In this document: one piece after another, positions 2,682 to 44,454 of the stretch | Layout of the letters: each line of letters starts with the position of its first letter | Numbering within the stretch: position 1 is the first letter of the stretch | IMG/VR virus record: IMGVR_UViG_3300013426_000013 | Coordinates: 61,580-125,579 of that record | Reading direction: 5' to 3' (one strand) | Origin: a virus | Lineage: Duplodnaviria > Heunggongvirae > Uroviricota > Caudoviricetes | Length of the DNA stretch: 64,000 bases | Made by a program: the position numbers and the translations under genes | Notes under the pieces: generated by a model | What the model saw: the letters and a program-made list of their open reading frames with translations, nothing else | What the model was told of the DNA's origin: nothing | Database searches by the model: none

Positions 2682-3572
2682 TTATTCTTTTTCAACAGCA
2701 CCATGTTGAATCAGATAATCCTTAATTTCATCATTATGTGTGAGTGATAGAATAGATGCGCCATCATTTGTAACAGCATTGACATCAGCACCATGTTCAA
2801 CTAAAATTTTGATAACATTTAAATTTGATGAAATGCAAGCACAGGCTAAAGGTGTGAATCCAGCAATTGAAGTAGCATTAACATCAGCACCTTTATCAAG
2901 CAACATATCAATAATATCAAGGTGACCTTCACGACTAGCAAAAATTAAAGGTGTGTCACCTTCCCATTCAGTATTATTAATATCAGCACCTAATTCAAGC
3001 GCTTTAACAGCTAGATCTAATTTATCAGAAATACAACTTCCTGTTAATAGACGATTAGCGTCATGTACAATAGCACCATGAAAAACTAAAGATTCAATAA
3101 TGTCATATACATGTTCAAAAGCACCTTCGTCTAAAAGAATATCAAGCGCAGTTTTTCCATCTTTATCTGTAATGTTTGGATCGGCACCATGTTCAAGTAA
3201 CCAATCGATTGTACTTAAATTAGCGTAATTTAAGCAAGACAAATACAGAATTGTTTCGCCATTGTTTGATTTGATATTGACATCGGCACCGTGTTCAACA
3301 AGTAATTGAGCAAGTTCAAGGTTATCTTGATAGATAGCACGAAACAATGGTGTTTCGCCATAGTAATCCGTAACGTTGACATCAATAGAAGGATCAGCTA
3401 AAACTTCTTTAACTAAATTAATATCACCGGAAAACAGTTTTACTTTTGTATTTTCCGATTCACCTTCTTCTATTAACTTTACAACGCTTTCTTTTAGTTT
3501 TTGATTAACTGTACGTCTAAAAGATTTAATCAATACTTCATCATCAATCATGTGTTTAGATTCCTTTATCAA
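2682..3572 (-). CDS. ankyrin-repeat protein
   Basis: 296 aa with at least 6 tandem ~33-aa repeats carrying G-(A)-D-V-N and T-P-L-x-x-A signatures (for example GADVNIKSNNGETILYLS, GADVNATSIAGFTPLACA). Confidence 0.8.
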   Translation of the reverse strand: MIKESKHMIDDEVLIKSFRRTVNQKLKESVVKLIEEGESENTKVKLFSGDINLVKEVLADPSIDVNVTDYYGETPLFRAIYQDNLELAQLLVEHGADVNIKSNNGETILYLSCLNYANLSTIDWLLEHGADPNITDKDGKTALDILLDEGAFEHVYDIIESLVFHGAIVHDANRLLTGSCISDKLDLAVKALELGADINNTEWEGDTPLIFASREGHLDIIDMLLDKGADVNATSIAGFTPLACACISSNLNVIKILVEHGADVNAVTNDGASILSLTHNDEIKDYLIQHGAVEKE

Positions 3573-5719: not shown

Positions 5720-5748
5720 TTGACATTTTTATAAATTTGTCATACAAT
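5720..5748 (+). promoter_or_regulatory. sigma70-like promoter TTGACA-N17-TACAAT
   Basis: TTGACA at 5720-5725 and TACAAT at 5743-5748, upstream of the 5788/6009 operon. Confidence 0.5.
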
Positions 5749-5787: not shown

Positions 5788-6009
5788 ATGATTACAGCTG
5801 ATAAATCACATAAAGTTTTTGACAACAGCGGTTGGGTTCCTGTAAAAGATAGTGGTTGGATTATTTTACATAATGGATATGTTGTTTGCCAGAAATGTGG
5901 AAAAAAGACATCTCATAAATTATATTTAGGTGCCGAACATCACGATGATATTCATTGTCCAAATTGTGATAATGTAGTTATAGGATCAAATGGTTTGAAA
6001 GTACGCTAA
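5788..6009 (+). CDS. small zinc-ribbon protein
   Basis: 73 aa with CQKCGKK ... CPNCDN (two CxxC pairs). RBS AAAGGTG. Confidence 0.5.
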   Translation: MITADKSHKVFDNSGWVPVKDSGWIILHNGYVVCQKCGKKTSHKLYLGAEHHDDIHCPNCDNVVIGSNGLKVR

Positions 6010-8276
6010 TGAAATATTTAATCTTGCTTCGAGGACTTCCCGGGTCTGGCAAAAGTTATTGGGTAAAAGAAAACAAATTAGAAGATTATACTATTTCTTC
6101 TGATAATGTTCGTTTATTGTTTGCAACGCCATCTATCCCGTTTGCCGCATGTTATAAAGATAGAGGTATTTCACAAAAGAATGATAAAGACGTTTGGGAA
6201 CTCATTCATTCTTTAGTTGAACGTCGTTTAACGAACGGCATGACAACTATTGTTGATGCAACACATTTGACGGAAAAATCTATCAACTGCTATAAAAGCT
6301 TTTGTATGAATAATAATGTGCGTTGTATAGTGCTTGATTTTAATGTGAATGTTGAACAAGCTATAAACAATGATATGTTGCGTAAAGGTACATGTCGTTA
6401 TGTTGGCGAATATATCATCAAACGCATGAATGAAAATACCGAAAAGGTTTCTAAATGGGTTGATTATACAGATAAAGATCGTATTATAAAGATGTTTAAT
6501 GAATGTCTGGAACCTGTTGATTATAACGAAAAGTATGATAACATTGTAATCTTCGGTGATTTACACGGTTGTTATGAACCTTTAAAGCAGTGGTTTGATA
6601 AGCATCCTGTTAATGATAAAACTAAATATATCTTCTGTGGTGATTATGAAGATAGAGGTATTCAACATAAAGAGTTATTTGGTTTTCTTTTACAACATCG
6701 TAAAGATTTTAACTTTAAATTTTTAAAAGGAAATCATTCACGTCGTTTGTTGCAAATAGCTGAACGTGATAAAGATTCTATTCGATATCCGGAATACTAT
6801 AATACACTTGAACAGTTGAAAGATTTTGATCCTATTGAACTGAAAAAGTTTGTTCGGGATCAAGATGATATGATTTACTTCACATTTCGTAATAAAGTGT
6901 TTTGTGTATCACATGGTGGTATTAGTTGTTTACCGTCCTTGAAATTGAATAGTGATGAATACGTAAAAGGTCACGGTACATATCAAATGGCGCATCAAGT
7001 CGACGATGAGTTTTTGTTTAATGTCTCTATTGAGAATGACAACATTTATCAAGTACATGGCCATCGAAATGTAAATAACGAACCTGTTCAAGTAAATGAG
7101 CATTGCTTTAATCTAGAAGGTGGTATTGAATTTGGTGGTGAATTACGAATTCTTCAAATTAATAATAAAGGTGAATGTCATATACATACTATCAAGAATA
7201 CCGTGTTCAAACAATTGAATGATGATTCGAAGATTGTTAATGAGTTTAAGTATTCATCTTTAATTCGTAAATCTCAAAATCCTGACGGTATCAGTTCGTA
7301 TAATTTTAACCGTGATGCTTTTTATGACAAAAAGTGGAACAACTTGACATGTACAGCAAGAGGGTTGTTTGTATATGATGATACTGATAAAGTGGCATGT
7401 CGTTCGTTTAACAAATTTTTCAATCTCAATGAAGTAAAGACTTCTAGTCTAGATTGGGTTGTTAAGAATTGGCAAGGTATTACAAACGTTTATAAAAAGG
7501 AAAATGGTTATTTAGGAATCATTTCTGTTGATGTTCGTAATAACGAATTTATTTTTGCATCTAAAAGTCGTACTGATAAAGAGTATGCTTTAAATTTAAA
7601 ACGTATCTTTAATGATAAATTGTCGGATGAACAAAAAGATAATTTAAAAAAGTGGTTACTGAAAGATATAGATAAACATGGTGGTAATGCATATTCTTTA
7701 GTTGTTGAGGTTGTTGATCCTATAAACGATCCGCATATCATTAAATATGATAGTTGTGAATTGTTTATGCTTGAAGCTTTTGTTAATACGTTTAAAGAAG
7801 AAACAATTTCATATGACGCGTTAAAACAATTGCATGATTTAATTGGTTTAAAGATCAAGGGAAAGATTTGTGAAACATCAAATTTAAAATCAACAATTTA
7901 TGGTTTATGTAATTCAAAAGAACATGTTGAAGGTTTTGTTTTGGAAGGCTGTGACTTTAATGGAAAAGTGGTCAGGGTAAAAGTAAAAACAAAATATTAT
8001 TTGATGTGGAAGAAGTTTAGGTCGACAGGTTTGTTTGATAGAAGTTTTGATTGTGTAAACGGCTTAACAAATGAACAACAAGTGTTCGCTAAACAAATTT
8101 ATCTACGTGCAAAACAATTGATTGCTTTACAGGAAGGTCAAACTATTCAAACCAATGAGTTGATTAATGTAAATGCTGAAGTTGATAATTGCAATACATT
8201 AATCTATAAAGATTTGATTGGTGGGTGGCATATTAACATTCCTAAAGTAATTGAATTCGTAGAAAATATGAAATAG
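6009..8276 (+). CDS. pnkp: trifunctional polynucleotide kinase / 2',3'-phosphatase / RNA ligase (bacterial Pnkp-like RNA repair enzyme)
   Basis: 755 aa. N-terminal Walker A GLPGSGKS; central calcineurin-like metallophosphoesterase motifs GDLHG, GDYEDRG, GNHS; C-terminal nucleotidyltransferase motifs KENG (motif I lysine), EGFVLEG (IV), VKVKTK (V). The domain order matches Clostridium thermocellum Pnkp. Confidence 0.85.
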   Translation: MKYLILLRGLPGSGKSYWVKENKLEDYTISSDNVRLLFATPSIPFAACYKDRGISQKNDKDVWELIHSLVERRLTNGMTTIVDATHLTEKSINCYKSFCMNNNVRCIVLDFNVNVEQAINNDMLRKGTCRYVGEYIIKRMNENTEKVSKWVDYTDKDRIIKMFNECLEPVDYNEKYDNIVIFGDLHGCYEPLKQWFDKHPVNDKTKYIFCGDYEDRGIQHKELFGFLLQHRKDFNFKFLKGNHSRRLLQIAERDKDSIRYPEYYNTLEQLKDFDPIELKKFVRDQDDMIYFTFRNKVFCVSHGGISCLPSLKLNSDEYVKGHGTYQMAHQVDDEFLFNVSIENDNIYQVHGHRNVNNEPVQVNEHCFNLEGGIEFGGELRILQINNKGECHIHTIKNTVFKQLNDDSKIVNEFKYSSLIRKSQNPDGISSYNFNRDAFYDKKWNNLTCTARGLFVYDDTDKVACRSFNKFFNLNEVKTSSLDWVVKNWQGITNVYKKENGYLGIISVDVRNNEFIFASKSRTDKEYALNLKRIFNDKLSDEQKDNLKKWLLKDIDKHGGNAYSLVVEVVDPINDPHIIKYDSCELFMLEAFVNTFKEETISYDALKQLHDLIGLKIKGKICETSNLKSTIYGLCNSKEHVEGFVLEGCDFNGKVVRVKVKTKYYLMWKKFRSTGLFDRSFDCVNGLTNEQQVFAKQIYLRAKQLIALQEGQTIQTNELINVNAEVDNCNTLIYKDLIGGWHINIPKVIEFVENMK

Positions 8277-8859: not shown

Positions 8860-10155
8860 ATGGTTGATAAAGTTTGTAAACTGTCTAGCGGTGCAACGTT
8901 TTTGTATAATCAGCAAGAAGACGATCTTTCATCGTTTGCTGTTTTGTTTGATGTTGGTTCTATTGACGAATTGGCAAATGAAAAGAAAGGTATTGCACAT
9001 TGTCTTGAACATATGATGTTTAAAGGTACGAAAACAAAAACAGCCGCTGAATTTCTTAACTTAATGGATAAGTTGGGGGTTGAGTCTAATGCTTTTACTT
9101 GTTTTGATGCCACTTGTTATCATGGTACATTTCATAACGATGATACAAAAGAAGTTATCAATTTGTTTGGTGAAATGTTAACTGAACCACGTTTCGATGA
9201 AAAAGATTTGGCTTTAGAAAAAGGTGTAATTCATCAAGAAATCATTATGTTTGAAAATAGTCCACAGGAACGTGCGCAACAACATGGTGTAAGTGTACTG
9301 TTTAAAGATACGCCTTTTGCAAGGCCTGTTATTGGGTATTGGAAAGATGTTAATGCGATTACATCTGATGACTTGCGTTCATTTATGCATAATCATTATA
9401 CACCCGCTAATTGCATTATTGCATATTCAGGTAAAACACCTTTTAATGAAGTGCGCAATATTGTTGAAGAATTTACAAAGAAATTCTCAAATAATAATGT
9501 TGTATACGAACGTGCGTCTGTACAGTTAAATTTAGGTGCTGATACTGTTGTTATTGAAGATAAAGAAACCAAACAGAATACAATTATGATTGGTGGTTCT
9601 TCATATACTTCAAACTCTATTGGTGGCGTTGCAAGCATCCTTGCAAAAGCTGTTTTAGCTGGCGGGTTGGCAAGTCGTTTAGTTAAGCGTATTCGTGAAG
9701 AATTAGGGTTGTGTTACTATATTGGGATTGCAAATGTCCCATCTATTAAAGATATTGTCACGCCACTAGTTGTTTGTATCACGGATAAAGATACAAAGAT
9801 GGTAGAGGCTGAAATCAAAAAAGTCATTGCTGAAGCCATTAAAAACGGTTTCGAAGATGAAGAAATTAAAGCTGTTAAAAAACATGGTGAGTTATGTTGT
9901 ATTCAGTCGAACATCAACCGTGATGATTATGCAGTTCGTATGTGTACAAATTATCAAGGTACAGGGAAGCTACCTTCACAGTTGTTGAAAACTAAAGTGT
10001 CTCGTTTTAAGAAAGCTTCTAAAAAATCTATCGAAGAAGCTGTTGATAAAATGTTTTGTGAGACAACTTCTATTCATGTAATCAAACCTGTTGAAAAAGA
10101 GTGCGCTGTTAAACGGTTCTTTAAAACAATCTTTAACCGATTGAATGAAGAATAA
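8860..10155 (+). CDS. M16-family (insulinase/pitrilysin-like) zinc peptidase
   Basis: 431 aa with the inverted zinc motif HCLEHMMFKGT (HxxEH) near the N-terminus, as in M16 peptidases. RBS AAAGGT. Confidence 0.8.
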   Translation: MVDKVCKLSSGATFLYNQQEDDLSSFAVLFDVGSIDELANEKKGIAHCLEHMMFKGTKTKTAAEFLNLMDKLGVESNAFTCFDATCYHGTFHNDDTKEVINLFGEMLTEPRFDEKDLALEKGVIHQEIIMFENSPQERAQQHGVSVLFKDTPFARPVIGYWKDVNAITSDDLRSFMHNHYTPANCIIAYSGKTPFNEVRNIVEEFTKKFSNNNVVYERASVQLNLGADTVVIEDKETKQNTIMIGGSSYTSNSIGGVASILAKAVLAGGLASRLVKRIREELGLCYYIGIANVPSIKDIVTPLVVCITDKDTKMVEAEIKKVIAEAIKNGFEDEEIKAVKKHGELCCIQSNINRDDYAVRMCTNYQGTGKLPSQLLKTKVSRFKKASKKSIEEAVDKMFCETTSIHVIKPVEKECAVKRFFKTIFNRLNEE

Positions 10156-10339
10156 TATGACACACGAATTTCCTTGCGTACATGAGTCTGAACTAAAAAG
10201 TCTTGCATTGTTCATTGTTGCGACAATGTTATTGATTGCTTGTCTATTCGGTTTTTATAGTTTAGGTAAAAATGAAGCTATTGAAGCTTTATGCCAAAAG
10301 CAACATTATGACTTTTGTGTAAAGAATAATAATAAATAA
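10145..10339 (+). CDS. small membrane protein
   Basis: 64 aa with one TM helix. It overlaps the preceding stop. Confidence 0.35.
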   Translation: MKNNMTHEFPCVHESELKSLALFIVATMLLIACLFGFYSLGKNEAIEALCQKQHYDFCVKNNNK

Positions 10340-10344
10340 CAATC

Positions 10345-10390
10345 GAATCACACGGTGTGTTTATACATGTCGTGTGATTTACTTTTTTTC
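10345..10390 (+). terminator. rho-independent terminator
   Basis: AATCACACG ... CGTGTGATT hairpin followed by TTTTTTTC. Confidence 0.55.
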
Positions 10391-10403
10391 TAATAGGTGA
10401 TTT

Positions 10404-10808
10404 ATGGCTGATACTGATATCGAAGAAAAAGTTTTACGGTATGCTTTAGCACAGATTGACGACAGTTATAGTTATAAAGAAGCTTTCAGCTTAACTGAAG
10501 AACAAAAACAAGTTTTAATTGAAATGAAAACTTGCACGCAGTCAGAAAAAGAAAAGTTGTTAGAAAAATATTATGCGGCTATTGAGTTTGAAAATTTAAA
10601 AACAGCATATCTAGAAAATTTGACCAAACAATATGTAAAGCATTTGAGAGAATGCTTAGATTTTTCTGTTGAGTTAGATTCAAAAGATATGCTTGAATTT
10701 GTTAAAGCTGAACGTGATTTAAGGAAAGTTGATTCTGAAAAAAAGTTTAATAATGAATGGCTTTTAGAGCGTTATAAAAATTTCTTTAATAAAGATTTTA
10801 TGTCATAA
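10404..10808 (+). CDS. hypothetical protein
   Basis: 134 aa, acidic/helical, with a GGTGA RBS. Confidence 0.45.
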   Translation: MADTDIEEKVLRYALAQIDDSYSYKEAFSLTEEQKQVLIEMKTCTQSEKEKLLEKYYAAIEFENLKTAYLENLTKQYVKHLRECLDFSVELDSKDMLEFVKAERDLRKVDSEKKFNNEWLLERYKNFFNKDFMS

Positions 10809-10871
10809 AGAAATTATAAAAAGCAAAAGATAATTAATGATAGTTTAAACAAGTATAATATAGATTTTGAA

Positions 10872-11075
10872 TTGAAAGAATCTTTTGAAAAGAGTTGGCG
10901 AAATTGGAAAATAAATAAAGATTTGATAAACATAAATTTACAGCCTGAACCTTTATACTCAACTACTTTTGAGGAATTGGAACGTTTTACTCAAACACTA
11001 GAAAAGAATTTAGGAAAGACTAGAAAACAAATTGTTCAAGAAATTAAAGAAATGATAAAAAGTGAAAATTTCTGA
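10872..11075 (+). CDS. truncated copy of the C-terminal domain of the duplicated HExxH family
   Basis: 67 aa. Its last ~45 aa (PLYSTTFEELERFTQTLEKNLGKTRKQIVQEIKEMIKSENF) are near-identical to the C-termini of the two downstream paralogs. Confidence 0.4.
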   Translation: MKESFEKSWRNWKINKDLININLQPEPLYSTTFEELERFTQTLEKNLGKTRKQIVQEIKEMIKSENF

Positions 11076-11968
11076 TGAATGATACTTTAAACAAATTTAT
11101 CAAACGTTGGTCTACACCAAATTATAAAAGAATGATGTGTTTAGAAGAGTCTTTTTATAAAGATTATATTGCAGCTTTAACATATTATAAAACTGTAATT
11201 GGTTTGTTGGATGACTACACTTCATTTAAGAATGAAGAAGATAGTGTTATAAAGAACAATTTCTTTAAAGAATTGAATGCAATATATTTAAAAATAAATG
11301 ATAAGCAACCTTCTATATCGTTCAGTTTTAATAAAAACATAAAAGAAATTTCTGGAAACTTTATGCAATTTAAATTTCCTGGAATCATAACTATTGCTGT
11401 ATTTAGATTGTTTAATAAAATTCCTAATACAATAAGTGAAGGTGTTGCTTTTGTGAAAAAAGCAATTAATACTGATTTAACAGTTTTAATGTCAATTTTG
11501 CATGAATACTTTCATTTTTTGTTTGAGAACGGTTTGTCAACAGAGGAGTTTCAAATGCTTAACAACAATACTAAAGAATCTGAATTTAATTCATATACAA
11601 AAGAGTTAATGATTCAATTATTGGCATCAAATGACAATAAATTCTTTTCAAAAGAAGGTGATTTAAAGAAAGCCTATCACGAATTTGAAGATACTATTGA
11701 AACAAAGAAGAATTTGCTGCAAATTTGCAATGATGAGAAATTGATTCTAGATACATTGTTTCAATACAATAAAAGTTATGAGTTGAAAGAATCTTTTGAT
11801 ATAAGAGCCGAAATTGATATGTTAACGTTACGACGTACCAAACCTTTATATACAACAACACTTGACGATTTGGAAAAGTTTACTCAAACACTAGAAAAGA
11901 ATTTAGGAAAGACTAGAGAACAGATCTTTCAAGAAATTAAAGAAATGATAAAGAGTAAAAATTTCTGA
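11075..11968 (+). CDS. HExxH-motif protein, duplicated family copy 1
   Basis: 297 aa containing ILHEYFHFLFENG (HExxH). It is the tandem paralog of the 11968-12854 gene. Confidence 0.55.
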   Translation: MNDTLNKFIKRWSTPNYKRMMCLEESFYKDYIAALTYYKTVIGLLDDYTSFKNEEDSVIKNNFFKELNAIYLKINDKQPSISFSFNKNIKEISGNFMQFKFPGIITIAVFRLFNKIPNTISEGVAFVKKAINTDLTVLMSILHEYFHFLFENGLSTEEFQMLNNNTKESEFNSYTKELMIQLLASNDNKFFSKEGDLKKAYHEFEDTIETKKNLLQICNDEKLILDTLFQYNKSYELKESFDIRAEIDMLTLRRTKPLYTTTLDDLEKFTQTLEKNLGKTREQIFQEIKEMIKSKNF

Positions 11969-12854
11969 TGAGCGATACTTTAAATAGATTTAAAAGAAGA
12001 TGGTCTACGCCAAATTATAAAAGAATGATGTGTTTAGAAGAATCTTTCTATAAAGATTATGCAATAGCGTCTACTTTTTATGTTGCCAATCTAAAGCAAT
12101 TGGATAATGCCAACTATTTCAAATTTAATAGTCAAAATATCTTAAATAATTTTGTCTCTTTTCAATCGATTGTTGTACAAATAAATAACAAGCAGCCAAC
12201 GTTATCCTTTAATTTTAATAAAAATATAAACGGTATTTCTGGAAACTTTAACCAAATAATGTACCATGACCTTATAACAATACCTTTATTTCATTACTGT
12301 AACAAAGTACCGGAAACAATAGAAGAAGGCATTAACTTAATTAAGCAATTAATAAAAGAAAATGAATTGATATCAGTATCAATTTTGCACGAATACTTTC
12401 ATTTTTTGTTTGAAAATGGTTTATCAACAGAGGAATTTAAAATGTTTAATGATAAAACAATGCGTTCAGAATTTAATAATTTAATTCATTTACAAAAGAA
12501 TTGATGGTTCAGTTATTATCTTCTAACGAAGATAAACACTTTAACACTGAAGAAGATTTAAAAAGGGCATATGAGAATTTCAAAGATAAATTAGAAACAA
12601 AAAAGAATTTATTACAGTTTTGTAATGATGAAAAATTAATTTTAGATACGCTAATCAAATACAATAAAGATTTTGAATTGAAAGAAGCCTCGGAAACAAG
12701 ATGGCAAATAGATTTAATCAATTTACAATCCGAACCTTTATATTCGACTACTTTTGAAGAATTGGAACAGTTTACACAAATGCTAGAAAATAGTTTAGGA
12801 AATACCAGAAAACAAATTGTTCAAAGTATTTTAGACATGGCTAATAAGAATTAA
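11968..12854 (+). pseudogene. HExxH-motif protein, duplicated copy 2, disrupted by an 8-bp tandem duplication (frameshift)
   Basis: Two overlapping ORFs (11968-12504 and 12501-12854) together align end-to-end with copy 1. Around 12480-12495 copy 2 reads GAATTTAATAATTTAATTCAT where copy 1 has GAATTTAATTCAT, an AATTTAAT duplication giving a +2 frameshift. Confidence 0.5.
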
Positions 12855-14031: not shown

Positions 14032-14122
14032 GGATACATGGTTGAGTGGTCTAAAACAGCGGTTTGCTAAACCGTCGAACAATGAAAGTTGTTCCGCAAG
14101 TTCGAATCTTGCTGTATCCGCC
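14032..14122 (+). tRNA. tRNA-Ser (anticodon GCU), type II
   Basis: Hand-folded cloverleaf: acceptor GGATACA/TGTATCC, anticodon stem GCGGT/ACCGT with loop TTGCTAA, long variable arm, T-arm GCAAG-TTCGAAT-CTTGC, encoded CCA. Confidence 0.75.
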
Positions 14123-14149
14123 AAAAGTTTCTGTAGAAGATACAGATTA

Positions 14150-14244
14150 TGCCCCTGTCGTTCAACGGTTAGGACACTCGGCTTATACCCGGGCGAGCAG
14201 CTGATATCTGCGAAATCACAGTTCGAATCTGTGCGGGGGTACCA
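14150..14244 (+). tRNA. type-II tRNA with predicted anticodon UAU (isotype ambiguous)
   Basis: Acceptor GCCCCTG/CGGGGGT (two G-U pairs), D-stem GTTC/GGAC, anticodon stem CTCGG/CCGGG with loop CTTATAC, 23-nt variable arm with GCAG/CTGC stem, T-arm CACAG-TTCGAAT-CTGTG, encoded CCA. Confidence 0.55.
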
Positions 14245-14252
14245 ATTTTAAT

Positions 14253-15107
14253 TTGCATTTTGAAAGTTGGGTAGACATGCAATATTTAACGAAACCTTTT
14301 GTAAAATGGGTTGGTGGTAAAAAACAACTTCTTGAGAAATTAAGATCTTGTATGCCTAAAGACTATAATCGTTATTACGAACCTTTTATCGGTGGCGGGG
14401 CCTTGTTGTTTAATATTCAACCTAAAGATGCTGTTATTAACGATACAAATAGTCAGTTAATAAATGTTTATAATCAATTAAAAATAAACATTGAAGACGT
14501 TATAAAAACGGTGAATACTCTAGACGGTAAAATTTGTGATGAAGATTATTATCTAGAAATTCGTGACCGTTATAATTCAAAAATCAACTCAAAAGAGTTA
14601 GATGCTGAATGTGCATCTTTAATGATTTGGCTTAATAAACATTGTTTTAATGGGTTGTATAGGGTCAATTCAAAAGGGTTGTTTAACGTTCCGTATAACA
14701 ATAAAGTTGATGGCGTTTCAATTGATGAATGTAATTTGCGAAACATCAGTAATTATTTAAATTTGAATAATATTGATATTCGTGAAGGTGATTTTGAGGA
14801 TGCTTGCAATGATGTGAAAAAAGGTGATTTCGTTTATTTCGATTCTCCATATGTTCCTGAAAGCAAGACGGCAAACTTTACTGATTATACAAAAGATGGG
14901 TTTACTCTAAACGACCATAAACGTTTAGCAAGTCTGTTTTGTTCATTGGATAAAATCGGCGCTTTTGTTGTGTTGAGTAATAACGATGTGCAATTGGTCC
15001 ATGAAATGTACGAACAGTATAATATAATCCCTGTTGATGTGCGTCGTTCAGTAAACAGTGATGCATCAAAAAGAAAAGGTAAAGAAGTTATTATTAAGAA
15101 TTTTTGA
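14253..15107 (+). CDS. dam: DNA adenine (N6) methyltransferase, Dam-like
   Basis: Motifs KWVGGKK, EPFIGGGA (motif I, SAM binding) and FDSPYVPE (DPPY catalytic motif), in the Dam/DpnII/T4 Dam order. The true start is probably the internal ATG at 14277 (MQYLTKPF). Confidence 0.85.
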   Translation: MHFESWVDMQYLTKPFVKWVGGKKQLLEKLRSCMPKDYNRYYEPFIGGGALLFNIQPKDAVINDTNSQLINVYNQLKINIEDVIKTVNTLDGKICDEDYYLEIRDRYNSKINSKELDAECASLMIWLNKHCFNGLYRVNSKGLFNVPYNNKVDGVSIDECNLRNISNYLNLNNIDIREGDFEDACNDVKKGDFVYFDSPYVPESKTANFTDYTKDGFTLNDHKRLASLFCSLDKIGAFVVLSNNDVQLVHEMYEQYNIIPVDVRRSVNSDASKRKGKEVIIKNF

Positions 15108-15118
15108 TGATAACTTTT

Positions 15119-15204
15119 GGGTAGGTGGCCGAGTGGTTAATGGCAGCAGACTGTAAATCTGCCCGCGAAAGCGTACGGTTGTTCGAATCAACCCCTACCC
15201 ACCA
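15119..15204 (+). tRNA. tRNA-Tyr (anticodon GUA), type II
   Basis: Acceptor GGGTAGG/CCTACCC, anticodon stem GCAGA/TCTGC with loop CTGTAAA, variable arm, T-arm GGTTG-TTCGAAT-CAACC, encoded CCA. Confidence 0.8.
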
Positions 15205-15234
15205 AACTTTTTGGAAATTATGATAAAAAAGTTC

Positions 15235-15263
15235 TTGACATTCAGTTCTTAATTTGCTATAAA
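15235..15263 (+). promoter_or_regulatory. sigma70-like promoter (AAAGTTCTTGACATTCA box), copy 2
   Basis: TTGACA at 15235-15240, a 17-nt spacer and TATAAA at 15258-15263. The upstream 17-mer is identical to that at 13683. Confidence 0.5.
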
Positions 15264-15303
15264 GAATATAGCAAGACGAGATGTTAAACATTGTAAATAA
15301 GAA

Positions 15304-15340
15304 CCACCAAGTGAACAAATACCTCTACGTGGTTTGGTGG
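15304..15340 (+). ncRNA. conserved hairpin with ACGTGGTTT loop, copy 1
   Basis: CCACCAA ... TTGGTGG stem enclosing a loop that ends CTCTACGTGGTT. Copy 2 has a different stem but the same loop. Confidence 0.4.
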
Positions 15341-15479
15341 ACAAGTAACCAGAAGTAAACCGTGCTATTTAGCTATTTAGCATAAGCATAAATTCTGGCC
15401 GGAAACTAAAATTTGTTCTATCAATGAAAAGCGTGCTTTTAAAGGTTTGTGTATAAACAAAATTTTATATGCAAACCCT

Positions 15480-15516
15480 CCTTCATCAAGCTGAAAACCT
15501 TTACGTGGTTTGAAGG
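15480..15516 (+). ncRNA. conserved hairpin with ACGTGGTTT loop, copy 2
   Basis: CCTTCA ... TGAAGG stem with loop ... CTTTACGTGGTT. A third, degenerate copy lies at 16420-16440 (CCTTCACGTGGTTTTGAATG). Confidence 0.4.
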
Positions 15517-16232
15517 ATAAGTAGCAACCTTCTACTGTTTATTTTCAAGAGCGAAGCATTGATTGTAAACTGTTGCGAAACAAAAGTTCAGCTATGTAAC
15601 AATTGATGAAATTTCTGCATCTTTTGTTGCTTTTGATGTTAGTTTTAAACCGTTGTAATCCCAAATTTAGCGTACGATAATGCGGGAAAACATATTTGTT
15701 ATAGCAGTTTGAGACTATTGCAAGCTATTTGTTTAGCCGTTTTTAGGAAAGTTTTGGTGTTAAAAACTTCCTATTTCTCATAGCGGAAAGATTTATAGGT
15801 CTCTCTTTATTGAAAAGAGTCAGTTCAATTCTGAATTCCGCGTAGGTAACAATATTGTCGAAAGATGATATTGTTTCAGGTAATTCGCGATAGTCAGTAC
15901 CTGTCAAAAACCTGGCAATTAGATAAATTGAAATATATTTATCTATTAGGTTCCTAAAACCTGTCATCAAAATTTAGGCATCAAGATTGTTTCTTGCAGG
16001 TTTCTTGTTCACCTGACAAAAGCAATAAGCAGTACAAACGCTGTAGAATCGTTTGTGGGTTTGTCGTTGCCCATATACCGACCAGAAATGATACTTGCTG
16101 ATATGATAGAAGTTCCGCTAGACTGATGATCTTCATGTAAAGTGCGACAAGCTTTACTTTATGACATTCTTAATTGAATGCTGTCAAAGGTTTTGTGTGT
16201 TGTACCAGCGTAGCAAAACAATACACGGTTAA

Positions 16233-16307
16233 GCCGATGTAGCACAACGGTAGTGCAACTGATTTGTAATCAGTAGGTTCTTGGTTCGAATCCGAGCATC
16301 GGCACCA
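16233..16307 (+). tRNA. tRNA-Thr (anticodon UGU)
   Basis: Acceptor GCCGATG/CATCGGC, anticodon stem ACTGA/TCAGT with loop TTTGTAA, T-arm with TTCGAAT, encoded CCA. Confidence 0.75.
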
Positions 16308-16507
16308 GTTGTTTAGGTGTTTTGCAGGGTTTAATTTTACTCGCTCGTTAAACCTTCCTTTCAAAATTCTCATCATCTCTAATTTTGATAAATGCAAAAC
16401 AGTTCAATTCGTTTGTTTACCTTCACGTGGTTTTGAATGTGAGTAGCTTAAGTTTTTAACAATTGTCGTAGATCGTTTACTTAAGTGAAACTAAATGACA
16501 AACAAAT

Positions 16508-16595
16508 GCCCTCTTGATGGAATCGGTAGACATAAGAGACTTAAAATCTCTTGCAATTTATTTGCGTGCCAGTTCAAGTCTGGCAGAGGGCACCA
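16508..16595 (+). tRNA. tRNA-Leu (anticodon UAA), type II
   Basis: Acceptor GCCCTCT/AGAGGGC, anticodon stem AGAGA/TCTCT with loop CTTAAAA, long variable arm, T-arm CCAGT-TCAAGTC-TGG, encoded CCA. Confidence 0.75.
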
Positions 16596-16598
16596 TTC

Positions 16599-16690
16599 GG
16601 GTGGTTGGTAGAGTGGTTGAATACAACGGTCTTGAAAACCGTCGAACATAGGAATATGTTCCGTGCGTTCGAATCGCACACCACCCGCCA
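16599..16690 (+). tRNA. tRNA-Ser (anticodon UGA), type II
   Basis: Acceptor GGGTGGT/ACCACCC, anticodon stem ACGGT/ACCGT with loop CTTGAAA, long variable arm, T-arm GCGTTCGAATCGC, encoded CCA. Confidence 0.75.
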
Positions 16691-16697
16691 AATTTAA

Positions 16698-16774
16698 CGG
16701 GGTTTAGCGCAGTCTGGTAGCGCGTCTGCCTTGGGAGCAGAAGTTCGAGTGTTCAAGTCACTCAATCCCGACCA
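16698..16774 (+). tRNA. tRNA-Pro (anticodon UGG)
   Basis: Acceptor CGGGGTT/AATCCCG (one G-U pair), anticodon stem TCTGC/GCAGA with loop CTTGGGA, T-arm GAGTG-TTCAAGT-CACTC, encoded CCA. Confidence 0.7.
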
Positions 16775-16779
16775 ATTCT

Positions 16780-16854
16780 TCCGTGATAGCTCAATGGTAG
16801 AGCAATCGGCTGTTAACCGATTGGTTGTAGGTTCGAATCCTACTCGCGGAGCCA
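16780..16854 (+). tRNA. tRNA-Asn (anticodon GUU)
   Basis: Acceptor TCCGTGA/TCGCGGA, anticodon stem ATCGG/CCGAT with loop CTGTTAA, T-arm GTAGG-TTCGAAT-CCTAC, encoded CCA. Confidence 0.75.
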
Positions 16855-16946
16855 ATTATATCTTTTTACTGTTCGATGCAACTACGCTTTCCATATTGCG
16901 TTTGTAAAGCTCTTGTCAGTTCTGCTGTTGCTAAAACTGAAGACAT

Positions 16947-17033
<87 letters not shown>

Positions 17034-17098
17034 AATTGTGAATTTGCAACAACCTTTTCTTTCCTTTCGGGTTGTTGCCAGCCAATGAGTGAAGGCTG

Positions 17099-17132
17099 AA
17101 GTTACAACTTTCTCAAGAGTGAAAGTTGTAAC
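17099..17132 (+). ncRNA. perfect 12-bp hairpin inside a ~300-nt ORF-free structured spacer
   Basis: AGTTACAACTTT-ctcaagagtg-AAAGTTGTAACT. The surrounding 17034-17342 also has the CAACAACC ... GGTTGTTG hairpin and a long-range GAGCATTGAGAGAG / CTCTCAATGCTC pairing. Confidence 0.4.
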
Positions 17133-17342
17133 TCAACGACATATGGCAAACATCTTGTTTGACGTTTGTTCATTGTCCTCAACGGGTGAGTTCTCTACTC
17201 CTTATGAAAAATCGAGCATTGAGAGAGCTAGTAAAATGCTTGTTTATAATGCAAGTTAAATCTTCGTGAAGAGAGTTTTTGCATAGCACCCCTGTTGAAA
17301 CGGTGATAATTTTACTGTCCTCTCAATGCTCGTGACAATTAC

Positions 17343-17417
17343 TTTCGGGATCGACTAAAGGTAGGTCAGCACACTTTGACTGTGCTAAGGTTGGTTCAAG
17401 TCCAGCTCCCGAAACCA
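17343..17417 (+). tRNA. tRNA-Gln (anticodon UUG)
   Basis: Acceptor TTTCGGG/CCCGAAA, anticodon stem GCACA/TGTGC with loop CTTTGAC, T-arm GTTGG-TTCAAGT-CCAGC, encoded CCA. Confidence 0.7.
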
Positions 17418-37692: not shown

Positions 37693-38331
37693 ATGAAAAA
37701 GTTTAATCTGAAATTGGGAAATAACTTTTGTCCTTTTTGTGGAAGTGAATTAACATATAACGATGAATATAAAGTAGTTTATTGCAAAACATGTAAAGAA
37801 AATGGACATACTGTTCAGTTTAAATATAAAGATGATCCGCAAGAAGCTTTTGATTATGCCAATACACGTAATGGTGAAAATGAGCTTTTAGAAAAGTTGC
37901 AAGACCTTTATGCATACTTAAAACAGTTAGGTATTGAAGGCCAGAATCTTGAAGATATTTCTGTGGCATCTGAAGGTGAATTGCCAAACAATGGTTGGAT
38001 TATCACTGAAGAAGCTGTTGCATTGCCTTGCGAAGAACCTCATGATGAAATGTATTCGCATTTAGTTACAGACAAAACCATTAATTTATCTGATCGTCAA
38101 GAAGTCTGCAATGTCATTCATTGTATTAATGTTACATATGTAATGAAAGTCCTTGACATATACATTCCAAAAAGATATAATGCAAAACAGAAAGAAGTTT
38201 TAACAAAGGTTTGCTCAAAGTATCCGAAAGATACTAAAATTGAAGTCGAATATTTGACAGAAGCTAAAGGCAAACAGTTTGAAACTTTTGATGGGTTAAG
38301 TGACTTTTTACTATTTTTGGATACAATCTAA
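37693..38331 (+). CDS. zinc-ribbon protein
   Basis: 212 aa with an N-terminal CPFCGSEL ... YCKTCKEN CxxC-CxxC ribbon. It directly precedes the radical-SAM array. Confidence 0.5.
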   Translation: MKKFNLKLGNNFCPFCGSELTYNDEYKVVYCKTCKENGHTVQFKYKDDPQEAFDYANTRNGENELLEKLQDLYAYLKQLGIEGQNLEDISVASEGELPNNGWIITEEAVALPCEEPHDEMYSHLVTDKTINLSDRQEVCNVIHCINVTYVMKVLDIYIPKRYNAKQKEVLTKVCSKYPKDTKIEVEYLTEAKGKQFETFDGLSDFLLFLDTI

Positions 38332-39194
38332 TGGATATCAAACCAATCACGGAATTTCTTCTTTGGGATAATTGCAATAACAATTGTAAGTTTTGTTTTC
38401 AACGGAAGAATCCAAGATTGTTTTCATTAGAGGAACAAGAACAAATTCTTGACAATGTGTTAAGGTTTCTTAATTCAGATGAATATATAAAAGGAAGTCA
38501 TGTACTCGTTGTTGGCGGTGAACTATTTGATCGTGATCGCGGGTTCATGCTTCCTTTTTTTGAACAGATTATTGAAAAAATGTTGTCTGACGACATTGAT
38601 ATTCTGTATTTGAATACGAATTTGATTTACGATCAAACATATTCAACAATGTTGAAACCTGTTTTAAAAATGTTCGATGCAAATAGTCTGTTTGACAGAT
38701 TAAAGTTCACAACATCTTTTGATATTGCCGGAAGGTTTAAAACGAAACAGGCACGTTCATTAGTATTGTCAAACCTATTGTTGTTAAAAGATGATTTTCC
38801 TAATCTTCGAACTGTTGTTAACATCATCTTAACAAAACAGTTTTGTGAAAGTGTTATCAATGAAAAGTTTGACATCTTTCATTTCATGGAATCGTTTAAT
38901 GTTAATACAAATCTAATTCCATACATTGTGTTGAATAAAGAGTTGTGTGCTGATAGAGAAACGATATTTGAAGCTTTAAGGAAGATTAATGAACAGCACC
39001 CTGAATATATCAGACAATACGTAGATAATATGGATTTGAGACATAAAAGGTATCTGTATGCTTGCTATCCAGATAATTTAAAATTGTGCAGTTGTGATGA
39101 TTCAGAATGTGGCCATTCTGTAAACTTTAAGAAATATAGCGATGACCATGAAGCATGTTTTGTTTGTGATTTAAAGAGAGTTTTTGATCTATGA
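38331..39194 (+). CDS. radical SAM enzyme, tandem paralog 1
   Basis: 287 aa with N-terminal NCNNNCKFCF (CX3CX2C [4Fe-4S]/SAM motif) and VVGGELFD (GGE SAM-binding motif). C-terminal cysteine cluster CSCDDSECGHSV ... CFVCD. Confidence 0.7.
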   Translation: MDIKPITEFLLWDNCNNNCKFCFQRKNPRLFSLEEQEQILDNVLRFLNSDEYIKGSHVLVVGGELFDRDRGFMLPFFEQIIEKMLSDDIDILYLNTNLIYDQTYSTMLKPVLKMFDANSLFDRLKFTTSFDIAGRFKTKQARSLVLSNLLLLKDDFPNLRTVVNIILTKQFCESVINEKFDIFHFMESFNVNTNLIPYIVLNKELCADRETIFEALRKINEQHPEYIRQYVDNMDLRHKRYLYACYPDNLKLCSCDDSECGHSVNFKKYSDDHEACFVCDLKRVFDL

Positions 39195-40147
39195 CTAAAG
39201 TAAACACAAATGTAGTAGATTGTGGTGAACATCGTTTTCTACAATTTAATTTATGGAAAGATTGCAATAATAATTGTGAATTTTGTTTTTATCGTGGTCA
39301 CAAATTGTTATCAAATGAAAAGAAAATTTCATCAATCAATTTTGTTAAAGAAAGATTGTTGGATTTGGAAGAATCTGATTTCTATAATGAAATTGGTTTC
39401 ATTGGTGGTGAGTTTTTTGATAATCAGATTGAAGATGAATCTGTGAAAAAGGCTTTTTACAAATTATTTGATATTTTAAAAGACAAACGAGAGCGCGGAA
39501 AGCTTGACCGTATTTATATTACAACTAATCTGATTTTTGATTCGAACAGATTGTTGAGACCGTTTCTTGACTACTTAAAAGAATTAAATTTATTAGATAT
39601 CACATTGTTGTGTACTTCATATGATTTGAAGTATCGGTTTCATAATGAAAAAGCATTACAGTTGTGGCAAACCAATATGGTTGAATTGTCAAAAGATTAT
39701 AACACAATGATTCATACAGAGATTATTGTGACGCAAGCATTTATTGACGCTGTAATGAAGGGAACATTTAATATTGAAGAGTTCTGTGAAAAATACAACA
39801 CACGTATTGATTATATTGAACCATCTTCAGGGTTTTATTTTTATGATAAAAAAGAGTGTGAGAAGGAAGTTAAAGACTTCTTCCCAAAACGTGAAGATTT
39901 CTTAAACTTTATTCAATATACAGCAATTGATAACCATTGGATTGATTTAACAAAATTCTTATCAATGCGCATTCGTTCTGATACGTTATATTGTCATTTA
40001 AAAGGACAGTGGCGAAAATTAGAAGGTCGTCGATCTCAATACATTTGTCCAACTTTAGGTTTGTATAATGTGACATATGAGAATGGTTATTGTGATTCAA
40101 AAGAGTCAATGGTTGAAGATGTTAATGCATTTTTAGGTAGTGTTTAA
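39191..40147 (+). CDS. radical SAM enzyme, tandem paralog 2
   Basis: 318 aa with DCNNNCEFCF and FIGGEFFD. The C-terminus differs (YCHLKG ... YICPTLG ... YCDS). Confidence 0.7.
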   Translation: MTKVNTNVVDCGEHRFLQFNLWKDCNNNCEFCFYRGHKLLSNEKKISSINFVKERLLDLEESDFYNEIGFIGGEFFDNQIEDESVKKAFYKLFDILKDKRERGKLDRIYITTNLIFDSNRLLRPFLDYLKELNLLDITLLCTSYDLKYRFHNEKALQLWQTNMVELSKDYNTMIHTEIIVTQAFIDAVMKGTFNIEEFCEKYNTRIDYIEPSSGFYFYDKKECEKEVKDFFPKREDFLNFIQYTAIDNHWIDLTKFLSMRIRSDTLYCHLKGQWRKLEGRRSQYICPTLGLYNVTYENGYCDSKESMVEDVNAFLGSV

Positions 40148-41079
40148 TGGGAAAAATGGTGCAATATTCGATGTGGTCTAATTGCAGCAATCATTGTGAT
40201 TTCTGTTTAATTCGTGACCATCATCACTATACGAAAAAAGAGCAGGTTGCTAATATTCGTAGGATTCGCGAAAACATCAAGCATGTTGATTGGCAAAATG
40301 AATTTTCATACGGAATTTCTTTATTAGGTGGTGAATTGTATTTCATTACAGATAAAGAAGTGCAAGATGAATTCATGCTGTTAATTAATGATATCATTGA
40401 TAATATTCTGTTAAAAGTTGATAATGAATTCTGTCGATATTCATCCGTTACAAATGGCTTGTATGATCCAACGTTTCTTTTTCGTGTAATTGATGAAATT
40501 AAAAACCGTGCAGGTATTGAAAAGGTTGATATTAACTTTTCATACGATTTGAAATACAGATATCATTCTGAAGAAAGAAGAAAACTTGCTTTAGAAAATA
40601 TTAACAAATTTCATGACCGATACAACTATCGTGTTGGTGTTCAGATGATTGTTACACAACATTTGATTAATTTATGTAAATCAGGTGAATTTAATGTAGC
40701 CGAATTTGTTGAAAAAGAAATTCCTGGTTGTGTGTTGTCATTGTTGTACCCGCACCCTGTTCAGACAGGAAATAAACTCCCAGATTTTTTCTTTAAACGT
40801 GAAGATCTGTTTTGGTTTGTCGATTACTTAAGAGAAAATTGTCTTGATACGTATTATAATTTTTTGTATAGTACAAAAAATTCCGGAACTTTTAAATATA
40901 CAGGGTTCCTTGACAGAACATCTAAAGGATTAAAACACCTTGATCAACAACCAACTTTATCTGATGGTAAAGAAGAGTTAAGTGAATGCGGACATTCTGT
41001 TTTGTATAAATGCTATTCTGATAGTAATGACTGTATGTTGTGTGATTTGGAATTACTAGAAGCGGATATTAATTCATGA
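40147..41079 (+). CDS. radical SAM enzyme, tandem paralog 3
   Basis: 310 aa with NCSNHCDFCL and LLGGELYF. C-terminal ECGHSVLYKCYSDSNDCMLCD. Confidence 0.7.
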   Translation: MGKMVQYSMWSNCSNHCDFCLIRDHHHYTKKEQVANIRRIRENIKHVDWQNEFSYGISLLGGELYFITDKEVQDEFMLLINDIIDNILLKVDNEFCRYSSVTNGLYDPTFLFRVIDEIKNRAGIEKVDINFSYDLKYRYHSEERRKLALENINKFHDRYNYRVGVQMIVTQHLINLCKSGEFNVAEFVEKEIPGCVLSLLYPHPVQTGNKLPDFFFKREDLFWFVDYLRENCLDTYYNFLYSTKNSGTFKYTGFLDRTSKGLKHLDQQPTLSDGKEELSECGHSVLYKCYSDSNDCMLCDLELLEADINS

Positions 41080-42987: not shown

Positions 42988-43076
42988 TCAAATTTTTATA
43001 TAAAATCATATAAATATCACTTGTATTTTCCTTAAAAAGATGATATTATAAAATAAGTAAGTTAAGGATTATCTGA

Positions 43077-44423: not shown

Positions 44424-44454
44424 TTTTAATGAATTTTAATATTTTAGGTGTTTA

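Follow-up and report, generated by a model that had tools for sequence, protein, structure and literature searches.

A 64,000-nucleotide stretch of a tailed-phage genome, here called the window, carries a gene that a first-pass annotation read as a kinase-phosphatase-ligase of the bacterial Pnkp type lying next to a tRNA array. The locus raises the question of which repair system the gene belongs to, which RNA ends its product would make and seal, and what the phage would use it for.

Domain architecture of the repair gene

The proposed open reading frame was borne out as an uninterrupted gene starting at ATG (Table 1). All motifs named in the annotation were found in the protein: GLPGSGKS (residues 9-16) in the kinase, GDLHG (183-187), GDYEDRG (211-217) and GNHS (241-244) in the phosphoesterase, and KENG (497-500), EGFVLEG (641-647) and VKVKTK (657-662) in the ligase half. 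Pfam assigned AAA_33 to residues 4-122 (51 bits, gathering score 27), Metallophos to residues 179-361 (50.2 bits, gathering score 21.5) and RNA_lig_T4_1 (PF09511) to residues 450-664 (98.2 bits, gathering score 28.3; model positions 2-227 of 227). An AlphaFold2 model of the protein had a mean pLDDT of 86.1 and a pTM of 0.70, with block-mean pLDDT of 60-87 in the C-terminal tail. This tail of about 80 residues is kept only in the closest relatives, at 58-78% identity (in the alignment, P0002-P0009 alone have it); in representatives of other clusters the match stops at about residue 672.

Table 1. Features of the repair locus, in window coordinates
Feature	Position	Strand	Remarks
Sigma-70-like promoter match, TTGACA-17-TACAAT, 11/12	5720..5748	+	Precedes two-gene unit; weak evidence
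73-aa ORF upstream of repair gene	5788..6009	+	No family match
Repair gene	6009..8276	+	Intact ORF (755 aa and stop codon) for a single protein with kinase, metallophosphoesterase and RNA ligase modules
P-loop polynucleotide 5'-kinase module	6009..6503	+	Residues 1-165
Binuclear metallophosphoesterase, predicted 2',3'-phosphate end-healing module	6531..7208	+	Residues 175-400
Rnl1/Trl1-type ATP-dependent RNA ligase core	7215..8024	+	Residues 403-672
Lineage-specific C-terminal tail	8025..8273	+	Residues 673-755
10 tRNA genes	14032..17417	+	ARAGORN; all ten also recovered with Rfam under permissive settings (46-75 bits)
D12-class DNA methyltransferase gene interrupting tRNA array	14253..15107

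The ATG of the repair gene overlaps the TAA stop of the upstream 73-aa ORF ('TAATG'), and the two are probably co-translated. The small ORF had no PHROG match. Relative L168, with a repair protein of 76% identity, has the same arrangement. Sites resembling promoters were no more numerous in this region than in shuffled controls. Stop-codon recoding, suspected from a 292-aa gene in the source assemblies that reads as two ORFs under table 11, was rejected: compared with three other assemblies, the window has 8 bp inserted.

Catalytic residues could be mapped in each module. In the kinase these are the P-loop residues K15/S16, the general base D32, R35, T85 and the lid residues R125/R130, including equivalents of CthPnk Lys21/Ser22/Asp38/Arg41. 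In the phosphoesterase, D184, H186, D212, R216, N242, H243, H302 and H352 match Asp187/His189/Asp233/Arg237/Asn263/His264/His323/His376 of the CthPnkp set, which also comprises Asp392. The ligase has R451, K469, F471, K497 (the AMP acceptor), G500, K519, E567, E641, G642, K658 and K660. Every mapped catalytic residue was conserved in 29 database homologs and in 157 homologs from fetched loci, and since the motif residues are invariant across both sets, the motifs lie far beyond chance. They include K497, the KENG lysine on whose conservation the annotation had made its ligase assignment depend. At the position of CthPnkp His189 (H186 here), the window protein and 119 of the 157 homologs have His, and a quarter of members carry a natural His-to-Gln change, the Saccharibacteria protein of locus L155 being one example.

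A Pnkp-type healing unit joined to an Rnl1/Trl1-type ligase

The resemblance to bacterial Pnkp held for the domain order and for the kinase and phosphatase, which are CthPnkp-like, but not for the C-terminal ligase, which belongs to the Rnl1/Trl1 family PF09511 rather than to the Pnkp ligase-like domains. That this region is an adenylyltransferase/ligase, as proposed, was upheld by the Pfam match and by a fold match to Trl1. It contains nucleotidyltransferase motifs I, III, IV and V together with the Rnl1-specific upstream Arg, Lys-x-Phe and the Lys119 equivalent. Aligned to T4 Rnl1 (hhalign, 97.7%), it paired with all eleven of R54/K75/F77/K99/G102/K119/E159/E227/G228/K240/K242; the match stops at Rnl1 residue 257, and the C-terminal tRNA-specificity domain of T4 Rnl1 was not aligned. 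Trl1 was the best match in both sequence and fold, including the region after motif V, and is closer than T4 Rnl1: both the LIG adenylyltransferase domain and the signature C-domain of Trl1 were matched. The ligase core also has a candidate Trl1-like triad, H576/K668/R671, which would correspond to the His-Arg-Arg residues H227/R334/R337 of CthLIG, set at fixed spacing from motifs III and V. Across the 157 homologs, neither the His (+9 from E567) nor the second Arg varies, while the place of the first Arg is taken by Lys in 152 and by Arg in 5.

Several known systems offer comparisons. Like T4 Pnkp and Rnl1, the window enzyme is phage-encoded, is predicted to carry out the same three chemical steps and uses a ligase of the same Pfam family; unlike them, it is one polypeptide where T4 has two, and its 3' healing would rely on a metallophosphoesterase instead of a DxDxT acylphosphatase. 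Like fungal and plant Trl1, it would be a trifunctional heal-and-seal enzyme. However, its order is KIN-metallophosphoesterase-LIG where Trl1 has LIG-KIN-CPD, its kinase is CthPnk-like and unlike that of Trl1, and it has a metallophosphoesterase and no 2H domain in place of the 2H cyclic phosphodiesterase of Trl1. The baculovirus protein AcNPV ORF86 also combines RNA ligase, Pnk and phosphatase, with the ligase N-terminal and the phosphatase of the DxDxT type. Judged by its sequence, the window enzyme is a chimera in which the end-healing unit is of the bacterial-Pnkp type and the sealing unit fused to it is of the Rnl1/Trl1 type.

Predicted healing and sealing of RNA ends

In our view, the likely product of the gene is an RNA repair enzyme that heals and seals without other proteins and would help to keep tRNAs intact under host defences. 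The gene is genuine, and its product is probably fully active. The central Mn2+/Ni2+-type binuclear phosphoesterase would open the cyclic phosphate and then take off the monoester, the latter step being predicted because the metal ligand His186 is kept; the healed end would be 2'-OH,3'-OH, as with wild-type CthPnkp. The N-terminal P-loop kinase would phosphorylate the 5'-OH with the gamma-phosphate of an NTP; Asp32 would serve as general base, and Lys15/Ser16 and Mg2+ would act on the NTP. Lys497 of the ligase would then be adenylylated by ATP, AMP would pass to the 5'-phosphate, and attack by the 3'-OH would reseal the RNA. Since no Hen1 would be needed and none was found among the annotated window genes, a 'clean' junction would be expected, as in the T4 Pnkp and Rnl1 pathway. 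In phages, the likely role of such an enzyme would be to preserve working tRNAs, and possibly other RNAs, when host defences cleave RNA; the members found in bacteria presumably have the same role against toxins.

The ligase itself argues against a clean end. Fungal Trl1 is a closer match to it than T4 Rnl1 is, and the His, Lys-or-Arg and Arg positions that enforce 2'-PO4 dependence in Trl1 are retained, a poor fit with a phosphatase predicted to give 2'-OH ends. The enzyme might instead need or strongly prefer a 3'-OH,2'-PO4 end, with H576/K668/R671 as the recognising residues; the phosphoesterase would here be chiefly a cyclic phosphodiesterase, and the 2'-phosphate would stay in place; the junction 2'-PO4 would later be removed by Tpt1/KptA or serve as a transient shield against re-cleavage. 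We regard this as unlikely. First, the retained His in the window protein and in most homologs predicts full phosphate removal. Second, the first triad position is Lys and not Arg, and T4 Rnl1, which seals 2'-OH ends, is also basic at the aligned positions (R166, H250, K253). Third, Tpt1 is absent from the window and was adjacent in only 1 of 160 homologous loci (1 of 47 lineage groups; 3.06 Mb of loci), a bacterial member in which the Tpt1 and fusion genes overlap in an operon. Lastly, no co-occurrence was evident at genus level in complete phage genomes: in these tallies Bacillus was the one listed genus common to Tpt1 (98 records) and the fusion (188 records), and Staphylococcus is not among the Tpt1 phage genera, yet 94 Staphylococcus phages carry the fusion. 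Nor was an RNA ligase found within 6 kb of kptA in phage phiCD211.

Genomic context and possible roles

The tRNA array reported beside the gene exists, though it comprises ten genes by both ARAGORN and Rfam and not the 11 first counted, and 'next to' proved loose because the array begins 5.75 kb further downstream, beyond about nine other ORFs. Its proximity, and the 12 tRNAs lying 4.2 kb from the gene in a close relative, would suit an enzyme that serves the nucleic acids of the phage itself, in tRNA or transcript maturation or quality control or in DNA-end healing, and not damage done by defences. Enzymes of this Pnk/phosphatase type, T4 Pnkp and CthPnkp among them, also act on DNA ends. Many homologs moreover have ordinary chromosomal surroundings in bacteria, such as a site flanked by IleRS and a DEAD-box helicase, which is also why a counter-defence role is something that we infer. 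Against service to the phage's own nucleic acids, ARAGORN reported none of the ten tRNAs as intron-containing, 48 of 80 viral loci lack any tRNA within 10 kb, and relative L167 has none nearby; Rnl1-family ligases are RNA enzymes, and to our knowledge their only established phage role is the mending of nuclease-cut tRNA. We therefore think such a housekeeping use quite improbable. The array was also rejected as a conserved partner: the relative with the 76%-identical repair protein has one, but a related phage whose protein is 59% identical has none close to the gene.

Other neighbours were similarly inconstant. When 3,382 ORFs from the 160 loci, in 47 lineage groups, were clustered, no neighbour family occurred in more than 5 of the 47, hence no conserved partner; recurrent neighbours were DNA methyltransferases, Band_7, Pol III alpha, HNH endonuclease and permease. 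None of nine flanking ORFs matched a PHROG, and the tenth protein scanned, whose gene sits within the tRNA array, is a DNA methyltransferase.

That the gene is a genuine bacterial Pnkp, whose ligation and junction 2'-O-methylation would need a Hen1 partner elsewhere in the genome, is highly implausible: the domain order is identical, CthPnkp is closest to the kinase and phosphatase modules and TIGR04075 matches in part (2.1e-15), but the match reaches 56 bits against an equivalog cutoff of 750, aligns model positions 10-406 of 851, and is contradicted by the defining C-terminal domain, which is of another ligase family. The reported lack of a Hen1-like methyltransferase holds among the Pfam-annotated window genes (up to about 59 kb of the 64 kb), where the sole methyltransferase is the D12-class DNA enzyme, and the recurrent methyltransferases of the 160 loci are DNA methyltransferases only. 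The window enzyme thus differs from the Pnkp-Hen1 system of Clostridium thermocellum in its ligase family and in having no Hen1 partner found. The Capnocytophaga gingivalis Pnkp1-Rnl-Hen1 complex (PDB 4xrp) is described as a three-protein heterohexamer in which methylation needs Hen1 (PMC4411300), whereas the window enzyme has all its predicted activities fused, without Hen1.

Distribution and significance of the family

The three-domain family is already annotated and is not new; databases label PHROG 8238 'RNA ligase'. Residues 1-721 of the window protein match positions 1-725 of the 737 in this model (3.1e-154), a full-length match. Members such as Staphylococcus phage SA11 gp182 (YP_007005657.1), Brochothrix phage A9 gp147 and Fusobacterium phage FNU2 have the same full-length three-domain architecture; the window protein is about 30-34% identical to these phage proteins and has its own lineage-specific 80-residue tail. 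The fusion occurs in 76 deposited phage records at a coverage of at least 80% (tblastn), and at E<=1e-30 the family forms 734 clusters (50% identity), bacterial chromosomes included. Its members come from phages that infect Gram-positive and gut bacteria and, on the bacterial side, from Saccharibacteria, Lachnospiraceae, Myxococcota and Alphaproteobacteria. The window protein's own cluster, the relatives at 58-78% identity, belongs to uncultured gut jumbo phages; the source phage genome is about 313 kb (for example CACUWO010000001.1) and has no close deposited relative, as a megablast search with the gene found no match among 50,697 phage records. An identical contig of 9.3 kb has been placed in the bin of a Melainabacteria MAG. 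The RNA-repair survey of Burroughs and Aravind from 2016 probably lists this fusion architecture. In the literature searched, we found no biochemical study of the fusion family and no activity measurement of any member.

For the window, the result is mostly corrective: the gene is a member of a large 'RNA ligase' family outside the bacterial Pnkp-Hen1 system. The family is worth more than the single gene, since Pnkp-type healing modules are joined to a Trl1/Rnl1-type ligase in a combination spread across phages and bacteria. Whether prokaryotes make 2'-phosphate junctions is an explicit question in the Tpt1 literature (PMC6097658), and the family bears on it in that it keeps the residues of fungal 2'-phosphate dependence. 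The conservation of H576, K668 (in few members Arg) and R671, the His-to-Gln change and the single Tpt1 operon together suggest a possible, if unlikely, reading of the family as a counterpart, in prokaryotes, of fungal tRNA ligase, with 3'-OH,2'-PO4 ends as the ones it seals. If true, it would be a missing bacterial pathway making internal RNA 2'-phosphates, and so a natural source of substrate for the enigmatic bacterial and phage Tpt1/KptA.

A chimera of Pnkp-type healing and Rnl1/Trl1-type sealing modules

In the repair protein, healing modules of the Pnkp type are joined to a sealing module of the Rnl1/Trl1 type, making it a chimera. Pfam matches above the gathering score placed AAA_33 at residues 4-122, Metallophos at residues 179-361 and RNA_lig_T4_1 (PF09511; 98.2 bits against a gathering score of 28.3) at residues 450-664, and all the motifs quoted for this protein in the first-pass annotation are present. 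The family profile matched the ligase domains of Trl1 (1e-31 to 4e-23), T4 Rnl1 (1.9e-14) and the kinase of CthPnkp, the Clostridium thermocellum enzyme (6e-16), while a PDB-wide search with the ligase region alone, at a limit as loose as E<=10, returned Trl1 ligases only. TIGR04075, the NCBIfam equivalog for bacterial Pnkp, aligns over residues 4-387 alone, and its 56 bits fall far below the cutoff of 750. The profile matches and this partial score therefore identify a chimera and not the bacterial Pnkp first proposed, an identity we reject: its three functions and its healing modules stand, but its ligase family does not. Fungal Trl1 is a nearer match to the ligase than T4 Rnl1 is, and the alignment with it runs past motif V.

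The ligase assignment also changes the meaning of the missing Hen1. No Hen1-like protein, second ligase or 2H phosphoesterase was found by Pfam context in the window up to ~59 kb, and a scan over the whole window found no Tpt1. The Pnkp-Hen1 literature ties Pnkp-type ligation to Hen1, but T4 Rnl1 closes healed tRNA breaks unaided; a lack of Hen1 is thus to be expected and carries no information, and the significance originally attached to it falls away with the Pnkp ligase.

Conservation of the catalytic residues

The C-terminal domain does carry the adenylyltransferase fold, matching Rnl1/Trl1 ligases. In an hhalign comparison of T4 Rnl1 with the family profile (probability 97.7%), R451, K469, F471, K497, G500, K519, E567, E641, G642, K658 and K660 pair with Rnl1 R54, K75, F77, K99, G102, K119, E159, E227, G228, K240 and K242, respectively, which we take from published mutational work to be the essential residues. 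The Rnl1 reference sequence matched PDB 2c5u over its full length. All eleven mapped residues, including the KENG lysine (K497), are invariant in 29 database homologs and 157 further full-length homologs from the fetched loci.

In a residue-level alignment with the CthPnkp kinase, K15/S16 correspond to Lys21/Ser22, D32 to the general base Asp38, R35 to Arg41, T85 to Thr80 and R130 to the lid Arg123 (residue roles from PMC3902929). For the phosphatase, motif comparison gave D184, H186, D212, R216, N242, H243, H302 and H352 as counterparts of eight CthPnkp residues from the essential set of nine (PMC3675462); it did not place an equivalent of Asp392. A subclass of ~870-920 aa (e.g. P0023, P0030, P0033, P0058 and P0115 in A1, our alignment of database homologs) has ~130-150 inserted residues within the phosphatase domain, after the GNH motif and before the conserved His that follows it, and in some members the ligase domain contains an insertion as well (A1 columns ~290-440 and ~806-850).

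Genomic context

The repair gene starts within the stop codon of a 73-aa ORF upstream, its ATG overlapping the TAA as TAATG. Promoter-like sites around the gene, among them the sigma-70-like site in the table, were no more frequent than in shuffled controls.

Features of the window around the repair gene and elsewhere
Feature	Position	Strand	Remarks
Ankyrin-repeat protein	2682-3572	-	kept in relative with 76%-identical repair protein
Sigma-70-like site	5720-5748		TTGACA-17-TACAAT
Repair ORF	6009..8276	+	755 codons, ATG start, uninterrupted
M16-family peptidase	8860-10155	+	Peptidase_M16 + M16_C; kept in the same relative
Direct repeat, ~220 bp	10948-11167 and 11841-12060		~0.9 kb apart; spans ends of ORFan genes
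178-aa ORF	11968..12504		part of split 292-aa gene
8-bp insertion	12470-12477		AATTTAAT
117-aa ORF	12501..12854		part of split 292-aa gene
tRNA array	14032-17417		10 genes (ARAGORN)
D12-class (Dam-like) DNA adenine methyltransferase	14253-15107		within tRNA array, between tRNA-Ile and tRNA-Tyr
'Plastid-psbl-rps4' matches	14067-14120 and 16634-16687	-	sub-threshold (Rfam); antisense to both tRNA-Ser genes
Tandem ORF block	38331-45420		seven co-oriented ORFs, ~290-450 aa

The tRNA array had been described as eleven genes next to the repair gene; a permissive Rfam scan returned the same ten genes as ARAGORN and none further, and the array starts 5.75 kb downstream, with about nine ORFs between. 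Among homologous loci, tRNA genes lie within 10 kb of the fusion in 32 of 80 viral and 27 of 80 genome loci. A relative with a 76%-identical repair protein is syntenic and has 12 tRNAs 4.2 kb downstream; one with a 59%-identical protein has another context and no tRNAs. With linkage this uneven, the association with tRNAs is suggestive, yet not a conserved feature. The 'Plastid-psbl-rps4' matches are almost certainly tRNA-Ser read from the opposite strand and no separate element.

Neighbours of the repair gene in the window are nearly all ORFans, apart from the ankyrin-repeat protein, the M16-family peptidase and the D12-class methyltransferase in the table. Clustering of 3,382 neighbouring ORFs from 160 homologous loci in 47 lineage groups revealed no conserved neighbour, with no family in more than five groups, which fits an enzyme that needs no partner. 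The recurrent families were DNA methyltransferases, Band_7, Pol III alpha, HNH endonuclease and permease; the methyltransferases, at other phage loci, belong to four families.

Several other features of the window were recorded. First, the window has 8 bp that three other assemblies of this phage (L002-L004) lack, apparently a tandem duplication. This insertion splits a 292-aa gene; it is a strain variant, pseudogene or assembly error, and explains the split without stop-codon recoding, which we rejected. The window is 99.86% identical to L002 over the 18.3 kb compared. Second, the copies of the direct repeat are ~87% identical, judging by the off-diagonal matches when L002 and the window are compared by blastn. 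Lastly, in the tandem block four adjacent ORFs are 23-31% mutually identical, two others are 41% identical, and some have weak or faint Radical_SAM matches.

Distribution of the family

The repair gene adds a new and divergent member to a large family, one that already has database annotation yet is apparently uncharacterised. PHROG 8238 ('RNA ligase') matches the protein over its full length (3.1e-154), and SA11 gp182, a homolog from a Staphylococcus phage, is likewise annotated 'RNA ligase'. Of 188 phage records matched by tblastn, 76 span >=80% of the protein (~30-34% identity). Staphylococcus phages predominate among them, joined by Brochothrix A9, Fusobacterium FNU2 and Lactobacillus phages. 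Searched exhaustively, 1.84 billion cluster representatives yielded 734 clusters at E<=1e-30, and the best 150 of these are nearly all full-length, aligned over residues 1 to ~672. IMG/VR holds 422 relatives and the species-representative genome set at least 288, some on long bacterial contigs from Saccharibacteria (up to 1 Mb), Lachnospiraceae isolates, Kurthia, Thalassospira and Myxococcota and on one Methyloligellaceae chromosome. No near DNA match to the gene exists among deposited phages; the nearest relatives, all from metagenomes, are 58-78% identical, and the next cluster only 42%. No biochemical study of the fusion was found in a literature search that lacked the RNA-repair survey likeliest to describe it.

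The identical protein occurs in several metagenome assemblies on ~312-314 kb contigs, so the source is a jumbo phage. A 9.3-kb contig with the identical protein (L087, CALAFU010000198.1) was assigned by binning to a 'Candidatus Melainabacteria' MAG, and a 34% homolog (L101) occurs in a Gastranaerophilales MAG; these placements may be a clue to the phage's host (the phage has 30% GC) or may be a binning artefact.

Route of sealing

By homology at each step, the metallophosphoesterase would open and then remove the cyclic phosphate and the kinase would phosphorylate the 5' end; K497 would then be adenylylated, AMP would move to the 5'-phosphate, and attack by the 3'-OH would seal the break. Since wild-type CthPnkp gives 2'-OH ends sealable by T4 Rnl1 (PMC1920235) and the corresponding histidine, His186, is kept in the window protein, a clean T4-style junction is the default expectation.

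Sealing by a Trl1-style 2'-PO4 route is an unlikely alternative, though one with several sequence features in its favour. The fungal ligase needs a 2'-PO4 end through a His nine residues past the motif III Glu and two Arg just past motif V (PMC11404444). Here, E567+9 is H576, and 'W-K668-x-x-R671' aligns with 'Y-R334-Q-W-R337' of the fungal ligase domain (CthLIG); neither H576 nor R671 varies among 157 homologs, and at position 668 Lys stands in 152 of them and Arg in 5. T4 Rnl1, however, is also basic at the aligned triad positions. Gln replaces the phosphatase His that corresponds to CthPnkp His189 (GDxHG to GDxQG) in 38 of the 157 homologs, a change that may be a natural shift of product specificity: CthPnkp H189D leaves a 2'-PO4 that yeast ligase then seals. 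These homologs span 16 lineage groups, 35 of them lie on bacterial genome contigs (Saccharibacteria, Myxococcota, Alphaproteobacteria), and they also differ at GDxxDRG positions (loci L037, L045, L079, L094-L163; e.g. L155 10001-12013); the window protein, by contrast, keeps the wild-type His. At one cellular locus, L151, whose contig bears the label of a Segatella copri isolate assembly, a Tpt1 gene (PF01885, 5.9e-43; 12184..12744) shares 4 nt with the end of the fusion gene (10001..12187), stop codon included, the pair standing between IleRS and a DEAD-box helicase. Yet L151 is the one locus of 160 with an adjacent Tpt1, and no other Tpt1 was found in the 3.06 Mb that the homologous loci comprise. 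Tallied by genus over complete phage genomes, Tpt1 and the fusion have just Bacillus in common among the genera listed, and the Tpt1 genera include no Staphylococcus phage. A clean junction remains the expected product, and only confirmation of a 2'-phosphate mechanism like that of Trl1 would make the repair gene highly important.
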